The notes under the pieces were generated by a model. It had not been told where the DNA came from. It saw only the letters and a program-made list of their open reading frames with translations, and did no database searches. Both the position numbers and the translations under genes were made by a program. Source: a bacterium (lineage in GTDB: Bacteria; Patescibacteriota; Minisyncoccia; Minisyncoccales; JAGLPU01). Taken from it: DNA of 28,618 nucleotides. Position 1 is the stretch's first letter, and every line of letters begins with the position of its first letter. The DNA lies in assembly GCA_030594935.1 (NCBI GenBank), contig JAUVEE010000001.1, forward strand, positions 1 through 28,618, in the 5' to 3' direction. Positions 13,684 through 16,038 of the stretch are shown one piece after another.

Positions 13684-13755
13684 TGCCCCCGGGCTGATTC
13701 GAACAGCCAGCTCCTCCTCCGGAGGGAGACGTCTTATCCATTAAACTACGGGGGC
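13684..13755 (-). tRNA. tRNA-Arg(CCG), 72 nt, CCA not encoded
   Basis: GCCCCCG/CGGGGGC acceptor stem, D-loop AATGGATA with the A20 Arg identity element, anticodon loop CT-CCG-GA, T-arm GGCTG-TTCGAAT-CAGCC, discriminator A. Confidence 0.95.
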
Positions 13756-14448
13756 GGGTTTGCGGGCTACGATATAAAAATCGGAATATTTCCATTCTTT
13801 CCCGGTGGTCCAGATTTTATCCACTTCAAAGCCCGCTTTTTTAGTCAAATCTTTCAGTTCCTTTTTGGTGAAAAAATGATAATAACGTTGAACTTCGCCT
13901 TCCCAGGGAACAAAAGTATCGCCGAAATCCAGTTTAGAAGCGCCGATAATTTTTAAAAAAGTGCTTCTTGCTAATCGAAGAAGATTTTGCTTGTCTTGGC
14001 ATTCCCAAACATTCCAAACCGTCAGAACCAAAGCGCCTCCCGGCTTAAGCACTCTTTTTGCTTCCGCTAAAAATTGCAAACGAAATTCTTTGGAAGGAAA
14101 ACAATGCAAAGCTCTAATGCTGTAAACTTTGTCAAAATAATTATCAGGAAAAGGAAGCCTTAAAGCATCTGCAACTCGAAAATCTAAATGGGGATAATTC
14201 TCCTTGGCTATTTCAATCAACTCGCTGGAATTATCAACGCCGACATAATCTGTTTTTTTGTCTTTAAAAATCTTATACAAACGGCCATTGCCGCAGCCCA
14301 AGTCCAAGACCCTTTCTCCGGCAACAACATATTCGTCCAATCCGGCAATATCCCAAACAAAACCTCTAGACCTTGTAAAATGCAGGGCAATTCGGTTATA
14401 ATTCTGACAAGTTTCCTTTAATAAATATTTTGCGTATTCTCTATCCAT
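13741..14448 (-). CDS. Class I SAM-dependent methyltransferase, Trm9/ALKBH8-like
   Basis: YNRIALHFTRSR, VLDLGCGNG, GVDNS..LI, VADALRLPF, YSIRALH, DTFVPW, QRYYHFF. The start was set at 14448 (MDREY), because the 14478 ATG lies inside elp3. Confidence 0.8.
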   Translation of the reverse strand: MDREYAKYLLKETCQNYNRIALHFTRSRGFVWDIAGLDEYVVAGERVLDLGCGNGRLYKIFKDKKTDYVGVDNSSELIEIAKENYPHLDFRVADALRLPFPDNYFDKVYSIRALHCFPSKEFRLQFLAEAKRVLKPGGALVLTVWNVWECQDKQNLLRLARSTFLKIIGASKLDFGDTFVPWEGEVQRYYHFFTKKELKDLTKKAGFEVDKIWTTGKEWKYSDFYIVARKPAPVV

Positions 14449-14451
14449 AAA

Positions 14452-16038
14452 ATGCAAACTGCTCAAGCTATAATTCAAAGGCTGATTAAAGATAAAGCAA
14501 AAACTGCGGATGATTTGGCGTTGATAAAAAGACAGATAGCTAAAGAATTAAACGCCTCTCTGCCCACTAATGTAAAACTTTTAGCAGTATATCATAATTT
14601 GCTCCAAGAAAAAAGAATTACCAAGTCCGAAACCTTGGAAAAACTTTTGATTAAAAGGAATATTCGCAGCCTTTCCGGCGTAGTGGTGGTTTCGGTATTA
14701 ACCAAGCCTTATCCTTGTCCGGGAAAATGCATTTACTGCCCCACGGAAAAAGGAATCCCCAAAAGCTATCTGTCCGGAGAACCGGCAGTGGAAAGAGCCA
14801 AGGCCTTAAAATACAATCCTTATCTGCAAACCAGAATAAGGATAGACAGCCTGACCAAACAGGGACATCCTATTGATAAAATCGAGCTGAGAATCATTGG
14901 CGCCACTTGGAGCGCCTACCCGGAACAATACAGAATATGGTTTATAACAGAATGCTTCAGAGCGGCCAATGAATTCTTGTCTATTAAAAAACAACCGAAA
15001 AAAGCGAGCTGGCAAGAATTGCGAAAAGAACAAAAAAAGAATGAAAAAACAAAATGCCGCCTCGTGGGCATCAGCATAGAAACCCGGCCGGACTCCCTTA
15101 ATTTAAAAGAAATCATCAGGCTCAGAAAATTAGGCGTAACCATGGTTGAGATCGGAGTGCAAACCATATTTGACGACGTTTTAAAGAAATGCCAAAGAGG
15201 ACATCTGGTAGAAGAAACTATCATTGCCAGCAAACTGCTTAAAAATGCCGGCTTCAAAGTAATGTATCAGATGATGCCAAATCTTCCCGGCTCCAATCTT
15301 AAAAAAGATTTGACCTGCTTTGAAACTCTTTTTGCCGATTCCAAATTCAAGCCCGATTGGCTGAAAATTTATCCTTGCTTGGTCTGCAAAGGCTCAAAAC
15401 TCTATCAGTTATGGAAAAAGAAAAAATATTATCCTTATTCAGATAAAGAATTAACCGAGCTTTTGATTAAAATTAAAAAGATTATCCCTCCTTGGGTAAG
15501 GCTCAGCAGATTAATCAGAGATATTCCCGCTTTTCAAATTGAGGCCGGCTGCAAAATTTCCAACCTGCGGGAAATAATCCAGAAAAGATTTAAAGAAGAA
15601 GGATTAAGGTGCAGCTGCATCAGATGCCGGGAAGTGAAAGAAAAATATAACCCCCAGGAAAAAATTTATCTTTTCCGGCAAGATTATGACGCTTCCGAAG
15701 GCAAAGAAATATTCTTGAGCTTTGAGAATAAGAAAAAAACAAAGCTTTTCGCTTATTTAAGATTAAGAATTTCCTCTAATATGCTGCCCGTGTTAAAAAA
15801 TGCCGCTATTGTCAGAGAATTGCATACTTTCGGGCAGATGGTTCCGCTAGGAAAAAAAGCTTCGGTCGCCCAGCATAAAGGACTGGGCAAAAAGCTTCTC
15901 AAAGAAGCGGAAAAAATCAGCAGCAAAGAATACTCTTTGAATAAAATTGTGGTAATTTCCGGAATTGGAGCCAGGGATTATTTCCGCAAACAAGGCTACC
16001 GTTTGAAAGATGAATACATGGCGAAAACTTTGATTTAA
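14452..16038 (+). CDS. elp3: Elongator protein 3 family radical SAM / GNAT tRNA uridine(34) acetyltransferase
   Basis: RSLSGV, KPYPCPGKCIYCP, PKSYLSGEP, IETRPD, VEIGVQ, MMPNLPG, LKIYP, RL.RDIP, C.CIRCREV, VRELHTFG, QHKGLG, VISGIGAR.YF...GY. Confidence 0.93.
   Translation: MQTAQAIIQRLIKDKAKTADDLALIKRQIAKELNASLPTNVKLLAVYHNLLQEKRITKSETLEKLLIKRNIRSLSGVVVVSVLTKPYPCPGKCIYCPTEKGIPKSYLSGEPAVERAKALKYNPYLQTRIRIDSLTKQGHPIDKIELRIIGATWSAYPEQYRIWFITECFRAANEFLSIKKQPKKASWQELRKEQKKNEKTKCRLVGISIETRPDSLNLKEIIRLRKLGVTMVEIGVQTIFDDVLKKCQRGHLVEETIIASKLLKNAGFKVMYQMMPNLPGSNLKKDLTCFETLFADSKFKPDWLKIYPCLVCKGSKLYQLWKKKKYYPYSDKELTELLIKIKKIIPPWVRLSRLIRDIPAFQIEAGCKISNLREIIQKRFKEEGLRCSCIRCREVKEKYNPQEKIYLFRQDYDASEGKEIFLSFENKKKTKLFAYLRLRISSNMLPVLKNAAIVRELHTFGQMVPLGKKASVAQHKGLGKKLLKEAEKISSKEYSLNKIVVISGIGARDYFRKQGYRLKDEYMAKTLI

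Follow-up and report, generated by a model that had tools for sequence, protein, structure and literature searches.

A head-to-head elp3 and Trm9-like methyltransferase gene pair points to a probable Trm112-independent wobble-uridine pathway in Patescibacteria

The 28,618-nt stretch of contig JAUVEE010000001.1 analysed here (the window), from the Patescibacteria genome GCA_030594935.1, carries a gene for a stand-alone Elp3 (elp3) lying head to head with a gene for a Trm9-like class I S-adenosylmethionine (SAM)-dependent methyltransferase (protein P0001). Judging from gene content, linkage and residue conservation, it is fairly probable (roughly 0.7) that the two products form an archaeal/eukaryotic-type pathway acting on the tRNA wobble uridine (U34), independent of Trm112 and in place of MnmE/MnmG in this bacterium. 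The pathway would convert U34 to 5-carboxymethyluridine (cm5U) and then to 5-methoxycarbonylmethyluridine (mcm5U). The host probably uses this route because the pair is present and the usual bacterial U34 enzymes were not found. A preliminary description of this DNA, made from the sequence alone, had proposed such a two-gene, Elongator-like pathway, and the proposal is supported here at the level of genomics, with the cm5U-to-mcm5U chemistry as its predicted part. On balance, it also seems likely that in Patescibacteria (about 40% of sampled species with Elp3, about 30% with the pair), Anaerolineae and others, a Trm112-free Elp3–Trm9 module together with MnmA has replaced MnmE/MnmG and yields mcm5U and its 2-thiolated form (mcm5s2U), which would be the first such case in Bacteria.

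As stated in the preliminary description, a complete Elp3 adjoins the methyltransferase. The elp3 product matched NCBIfam TIGR01211 (ELP3) with 564 bits (cut-off 350) across profile positions 2–522 of 522, in agreement with the whole-genome search, and Pfam identified Radical_SAM, Radical_SAM_C and acetyltransferase domains. Its closest sequences in the Protein Data Bank (PDB) were M. infernus MinElp3 (6iaz, 425 bits) and D. mccartyi DmcElp3 (5l7j, 384 bits). The Fe-S cysteine motif CPGKCIYCP aligned with CPHGKCIFCP of MinElp3, and the acetyl-CoA motif (Q/RxxGxG) of the KAT domain, QHKGLGKKL, aligned with QHMGYGRML of the same protein. By these matches the protein is a complete stand-alone Elp3, and from its family membership it is predicted to form cm5U34, an activity proven for MinElp3 and implied for DmcElp3 (literature including PMC6367351 and PMC7663514).

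The likeness of P0001 to Trm9/ALKBH8 that had been put forward earlier was borne out by both profile and structure searches. All of the motifs quoted for it (YNRIALHFTRSR, GCGNG, DTFVPW, and RYYHFF) are present, together with SIRALHC. Pfam returned generic matches only, led by Methyltransf_11 (85 bits), every NCBIfam match (e.g., UbiE, MenG, and BioC) fell far under its cut-off, and the ESM Atlas feature search gave generic methyltransferase names only, speaking neither for nor against Trm9. Searching 177,635 PDB sequences with a profile built from an alignment of 42 homologues (profile A1) revealed Yarrowia lipolytica Trm9 (5cm2_Z) as the top match (80.3 bits, E 1.2e-21, profile positions 25–223 of 230). 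The AlphaFold2 model of P0001 (predicted local distance difference test, pLDDT, 93.5; predicted template modelling score, pTM, 0.90) was compared by Foldseek with 550,129 Swiss-Prot models, among which Trm9 of S. pombe, S. cerevisiae, and A. thaliana took ranks 1–3, a microsporidian homologue rank 4, and ALKBH8 ranks 5, 7, 8, 9, and 12, with MenG-type enzymes from rank 6. The structural case leans on this model search and on the sequence profile rather than on Foldseek against solved structures. Moreover, many homologues of about 55% identity carry the automatic JGI names 'tRNA (uracil-5-)-methyltransferase TRM9' or 'alkB family protein 8'. A maximum-likelihood (ML) tree of 59 sequences, with no eukaryotic Trm9 among them, recovered a candidate phyla radiation (CPR) clade, an archaeal clade (Korarchaeota, haloarchaea, and Asgard), and a Chloroflexota-type clade. 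Searches started from the archaeal homologue gave 150 unnamed proteins of prokaryotic size and, among named sequences, those of Korarchaeota and haloarchaea only.

Considering that mutagenesis of S. cerevisiae Trm9 (ScTrm9) has defined R29, D72, H116, W145, W168, R241, Y243, and N271 as needed residues and H115 as one of smaller effect (PMC4678810), these positions were transferred to P0001 by a hidden Markov model (HMM) alignment to Yarrowia Trm9, where they correspond to R28, D72, position 116, W145, W182, R188, Y190, D223, and H115, respectively; the equivalent of ScY18 is Y17. Among 120 close homologues, D49, D72 (the acidic residue that binds the SAM ribose), R28, and W145 were invariant, and W182 and R188 were each kept in 119. 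Position 223 was Asn in 109 and Asp, as in P0001, in 50 of 171 Trm9-like sequences, and the equivalent of ScY243 varied across the family (Y, F, I, or V). Of 51 homologues that adjoin Elp3 in various phyla (Sc numbering), all kept R29, D72, and W145, 50 kept H115, 49 H116, 50 R241, and 44 W168. The same positions were degraded at 26 homologous loci without a neighbouring Elp3 (e.g., W145 in 12 and R28 in 15 of the 26). The Trm9 residue signature therefore tracks with Elp3 linkage, being near-invariant in linked and degraded in unlinked homologues.

The elp3–methyltransferase synteny, which had been named as a check, is conserved across Patescibacteria and beyond. In an even sample of 301 species genomes from the phylum, whose members are labelled Parcubacteria, Paceibacterota, or Patescibacteria group at NCBI, Elp3 was found in 121 and the methyltransferase (E 1e-25 or better) in 91, of which 89 also had Elp3; the two exceptions were weak matches (110 and 89 bits). 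According to the reported match coordinates, compared by hand between two tables, the two genes were directly adjacent (matches less than about 280 bp apart) in 66 of the 89 genomes, 0.8–3.5 kb apart in 8, and on different contigs or far apart in 15. Orientation was divergent in every one of the 66 adjacent and 8 nearby cases, and the genomes with the pair come from well over 25 GTDB families; chance falls far short of explaining the pairing. Elp3 occurred without the methyltransferase in 32 genomes, including all 14 of one family (f31), and beside Elp3 in the methyltransferase-less lineages no replacement partner was found, the neighbours being unrelated genes (nucleoside diphosphate kinase, SLOG, PF00590 TP_methylase-family, DNA glycosylase, and others). 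In family f31, the divergent neighbour of Elp3 was an N-terminally extended nucleoside diphosphate kinase (about 200 aa) in three genomes (G017, G174, and G237; loci L094–L096; three loci scanned of four), while in another genome with Elp3 and no methyltransferase (G013) a SLOG gene was the direct divergent neighbour.

Scanning prokaryotes at one genome per species gave 80 loci, in 51 of which Elp3 adjoins the methyltransferase. Outside the phylum, the divergent pair was found in Anaerolineae/Chloroflexota (e.g., L048, L050, L055, L057, and L061) and Fermentibacteria (L062), and Elp3-adjacent loci were also present in metagenome-assembled genomes (MAGs) labelled Nitrosomonadaceae, Myxococcales, and 'Multivoraceae'. 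In a Gracilibacteria locus (L031) the two genes are co-directional. In a Korarchaeota-like archaeal contig (L045) they form a tight operon, the methyltransferase gene ending with its stop at 1103 and elp3 beginning with its ATG at 1105, which mirrors the Elp3–Trm9 gene cluster reported for Sulfolobus (PMC2584109).

Genes of other wobble-uridine enzymes were searched for by six-frame HMM searches of incomplete MAGs, the host genome comprising 636 kb in 72 contigs. MnmE and MnmG, whose absence had been proposed as a further check, were not found in the host genome: the best score for MnmG (TIGR00136) was 17 bits against a cut-off of 525, and that for MnmE (TIGR00450) was 32 bits against 253. MnmG was present in 11 of the 301 phylum genomes, none of which had Elp3, and in none of five large non-CPR genomes carrying the pair (3–8.6 Mb). 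About 170 of the 301 genomes had neither Elp3 nor MnmG; these either leave C5 of U34 unmodified or use another route. MnmA (TrmU) was present in the host above its cut-off (327 bits), which implies a bacterial-type enzyme for any 2-thiolation. ARAGORN identified 41 tRNAs in the host, with Lys-UUU, Glu-UUC, Arg-UCU, Gly-UCC, and Leu-UAA as U34 candidates; C34 isoacceptors were present for Lys, Glu, Arg, Leu, and Gln, such that every sampled split box has one. A tRNA-Ile(UAU) was also found outside the window (host contig C8:160-234). Just two CAU tRNAs were detected, and a search of the 88%-complete genome gave no TilS (TIGR02432). Eukaryotes and a few bacteria decode AUA with a U34 tRNA, and the same may therefore hold for this host.

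In the proposed pathway, Elp3 would use radical SAM chemistry and acetyl-CoA to place a carboxymethyl group onto C5 of U34, as its family membership suggests, in wobble-U tRNAs such as Lys-UUU, Glu-UUC, Arg-UCU, and Gly-UCC. The Trm9-like methyltransferase would then esterify the carboxyl with SAM to give mcm5U34, as residue conservation and gene linkage suggest, and MnmA would presumably add the 2-thio group on the Lys, Glu, and Gln tRNAs to give mcm5s2U. In this way the Elp3–methyltransferase pathway would stand in for MnmE/MnmG, with the methyltransferase predicted, given the absence of Trm112, to act without the partner used by yeast, human, and Haloferax Trm9. The abutting head-to-head starts would keep elp3 and the methyltransferase gene as one inherited and probably co-regulated unit.

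Several observations weigh against this pathway or against the Trm9 assignment on which it is built. In the profile A1 search, generic methyltransferases followed Trm9 at 74.7 bits, a small margin, mostly matching the SAM core only. Foldseek against solved structures ranked Trm9 (5cm2) 6th, the first being 3sm3, and the backbone of the ML tree was a polytomy relative to the outgroups, such that the tree neither groups the bacterial and archaeal Trm9-like clades to the exclusion of generic methyltransferases nor speaks against this grouping. P0001 has H115-C116 (SIRALHC) where Trm9 has the His-His dyad H115-H116. Trm9 requires Trm112 in yeast, human, and Haloferax, and Trm112 (PF03966) was detected neither in the host genome nor in five complete relatives carrying the pair, while the search controls (E. 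coli, Haloferax, and Sulfolobus) scored above the cut-off. Furthermore, the enzyme absences are provisional because the genome is 88% complete. Across the phylum sample, a Trm112p domain scored above the cut-off in 12 of the 301 genomes, including 3 of the 89 pair carriers, and was thus not detected in 86 of the 89. These matches all lie inside long open reading frames (ORFs; the best-scoring of about 300 aa, the others of 200 to 760 aa), which suggests zinc-ribbon fusions rather than free Trm112. As for 3sm3, it is an uncharacterised Methanosarcina mazei methyltransferase (Q8PUK2) that also aligns in sequence over nearly its full length and could be an archaeal Trm9-like enzyme that has gone unrecognised.

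The His-to-Cys replacement is the centre of two alternatives. The SIRALHC oddity pointed out earlier is real and replaces a His that is essential in yeast, where the H116A mutant is inactive, with less than 0.5% of wild-type activity (PMC4678810). The window copy could accordingly be a catalytically impaired enzyme kept as a weak or non-catalytic partner within a family that is active at large, and the rarity of Cys at position 116 (H 108, N 6, Q 4, and C 2 among 120 homologues) would fit with this. We regard such impairment as improbable: the ORF is intact and retains every other functional residue as well as the SAM motifs, Cys116 is shared by the 86%-identical relative P0002 and the 84%-identical P0003 has Asn, and polar residues have taken this position independently in further Elp3-linked members. 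The dyad reads HN, HQ, PH, QH, or MH in other sub-clades, and therefore one His of it is nearly always kept. Cys116 looks like a maintained polar variant rather than decay. The second alternative takes P0001 as a true Elp3-tied Trm9 homologue with another end product or step than mcm5U, either acting on a different Elp3-dependent intermediate or having its specificity altered by the H-C change. The variation at position 116 (Cys here, N or Q in other sub-clades), the unidentified side products already reported for the Haloferax pathway (PMC6144793), and the 32 genomes with Elp3 and no methyltransferase, in which cm5U can have other fates, lend it some weight. We nevertheless consider it unlikely, since the residues that hold the carboxylate and the uracil ring of cm5U in place (R28, H115, W145, W182, R188, and D/N223) are all kept and the HN, HQ, and HC variants still adjoin Elp3.

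A very different possibility is that P0001 is unrelated to the pathway and acts on a small molecule or lipid (UbiE/MenG/BioC-like), its position next to elp3 being incidental, as might be read from the generic or sub-threshold Pfam and NCBIfam matches and from MenG appearing at rank 6 of the Swiss-Prot search. This is close to refuted, given how far those NCBIfam matches lie under their cut-offs, the near-confinement of the methyltransferase to Elp3 genomes, its adjacency to Elp3 in 66 of them, and the conservation of Trm9-specific residues outside the SAM fold in Elp3-linked members only. In addition, CmoB (TIGR00452) of the uridine 5-oxyacetic acid (cmo5U) pathway was not found in the host genome (best 28.7 bits against a cut-off of 275), and a CmoM-type function was rejected on the same ground, CmoB being the maker of the cmo5U substrate. 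Conversion of cm5U to mcm5U thus stands as the preferred reading of the pair, with P0001 placed by homology in the Elp3-linked Trm9-like clade and not treated as a proven catalytic equivalent of Trm9, because H115-C116 replaces the His-His dyad.

The features of the locus are listed in Table 1. The methyltransferase ORF was originally called at 13741-14478 on the minus strand (245 aa, from a TTG at 14478). The true start is the ATG at 14448 (MDREYAKYLL...), where every homologue begins, and the stretch from the TTG is an upstream extension that the homologues do not have. The two ATGs are 3 bp apart, and there is therefore no intergenic region between the divergent genes. At five related loci (L013, L015, L016, L017, and L020) the divergent start codons overlap as the palindrome CATG, and elsewhere in the relatives they abut; with such an overlap, either the mRNAs are leaderless or each 5' region must be contained in the coding sequence of the partner gene. 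The candidate promoter-like site lies about 50 bp upstream of the elp3 start, within the methyltransferase coding sequence, and is weak evidence because the region holds 6 such sites against 7.2 expected from shuffled sequence. The promoter scan revealed no site for the methyltransferase gene in the same region. The two genes could plausibly be co-regulated from promoters that each lie within the coding sequence of the other, with one weak promoter-like site behind this idea.

Table 1. Features of the elp3–methyltransferase locus (positions in the window)
Feature	Position	Strand	Remarks
elp3	14452-16038	+	stand-alone Elp3, 528 aa, radical-SAM and KAT/GNAT domains; predicted cm5U34 synthase
Trm9-like class I SAM methyltransferase gene (P0001)	13741-14448	-	235 aa; predicted cm5U34 to mcm5U34 carboxyl methyltransferase
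Head-to-head junction CAT AAA ATG	14446-14454		elp3 and methyltransferase start codons, read from sequence
Promoter-like site (TTGTAA, 18-nt spacer, TATAAT)	14373-14402	+	candidate only; 10/12 consensus positions
tRNA-Arg(CCG)	13684-13755	-	ARAGORN; directly downstream of the methyltransferase gene
SLOG cluster-4 (LOG-like, PF18306) protein gene	13102-13647	-	just past tRNA-Arg(CCG)

At the other end of the methyltransferase gene, the tRNA gene with C34 that had been noted earlier was confirmed as tRNA-Arg(CCG), which is a neighbour and not an Elp3 substrate because of its C34. The final 15 nt of the methyltransferase gene (13741-13755), comprising its last four codons and the TAA stop, are at once part of the 5' end of the tRNA on the same strand; if both were transcribed together, RNase P would thus cut the stop off the methyltransferase message. 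This tRNA also comes directly after the methyltransferase gene in nine related loci (L011–L014, L016–L018, L021, and L023), whereas a tRNA-Ser(CGA) takes its place in L020. The order methyltransferase, tRNA-Arg(CCG), SLOG gene is kept in nine related loci, and the SLOG gene beyond the tRNA is kept in eight.

In textbooks and reviews, mcm5U and mcm5s2U figure as modifications of eukaryotes and a few archaea, and bacteria as users of MnmE/MnmG chemistry. According to a 2017 review, bacterial genomes contain no detectable homologues of Trm112-dependent methyltransferases (PMC5372719), a 2020 review confined bacterial Elp3 to Dehalococcoides (PMC7663514), and it is likewise called a rarity elsewhere (PMC6367351). 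A 2026 paper mentions 'numerous bacteria' with Elp3 and discusses no methyltransferase. Our literature search, which was thin in subscription journals, found no paper linking Elp3 or Trm9 to Patescibacteria/CPR or describing the pair. The comparisons made here support a known pathway in an unexpected domain, distinguished by its bacterial host, the lack of Trm112, MnmA as the thiolase, the head-to-head arrangement, and H116C in this copy. If so, a 'eukaryotic' wobble modification serves to decode split codon boxes in a major bacterial radiation, a naturally Trm112-independent Trm9 exists that would be useful for studying the structure and mechanism of ALKBH8-type enzymes, and the evolutionary history of Elongator chemistry must include bacteria.

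Compared with the MnmE–MnmG (with MnmC) pathway of other bacteria, the proposed route has the same target, C5 of U34, in the same tRNAs, and likewise combines with MnmA-dependent 2-thiolation, but the enzymes and chemistry are unrelated, as MnmE–MnmG employs a GTPase and an FAD/folate-dependent enzyme to produce 5-carboxymethylaminomethyluridine (cmnm5U) or 5-methylaminomethyluridine (mnm5U). A bacterial class I methyltransferase acting on the side-chain carboxyl of a wobble uridine is known in the E. coli enzyme CmoM (SmtA), which converts cmo5U to its methyl ester mcmo5U. CmoM depends on the CmoA/CmoB cmo5U pathway and is not known to be linked to Elp3. Among bacteria, DmcElp3 of Dehalococcoides mccartyi (5L7J), the characterised representative, is a stand-alone Elp3 as well; it is without the basic N-terminal extension, whereas the Elp3 of the window matches TIGR01211 from position 2. 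Reviews describe DmcElp3 as rare and clade-restricted, with its downstream chemistry unknown (PMC6367351, PMC7663514), and the literature covered discusses no methyltransferase partner for it.

P0001 shares with yeast Trm9–Trm112 (S. cerevisiae; Y. lipolytica, 5CM2) and animal ALKBH8–TRMT112 the class I fold, the N-terminal helix motif (a Tyr and an Arg separated by 11 residues), the substrate-positioning residues R29, H115, W145, W168, R241, and N271 (Asp in P0001), and the predicted reaction from cm5U34 to mcm5U34 downstream of Elp3. It differs in its low identity (about 22–26%), in being without RRM or AlkB domains, in the Cys at the essential His116, in the physical coupling of its gene to elp3, and in having no detectable Trm112 partner. 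The archaeal pathway, represented by the Elp3 proteins of M. infernus and M. jannaschii and by Haloferax and Sulfolobus, resembles the present one in employing a stand-alone Elp3 without Elp1, 2, 4, 5, or 6. In Haloferax volcanii, mcm5U has been shown by liquid chromatography–mass spectrometry and needs both HvoTrm9 and Trm112 (PMC6144793). Relative to these archaea, the pair described here resides in a bacterial host and is arranged head to head rather than as an operon, thiolation would be carried out by MnmA rather than by an Ncs6/Tuc1-type enzyme, and the predicted independence from Trm112 stands against its requirement in vivo in Haloferax. The Elp3 of the window is most similar to MinElp3, and the genes for Elp3 and the Trm9-like enzyme are clustered in both settings.

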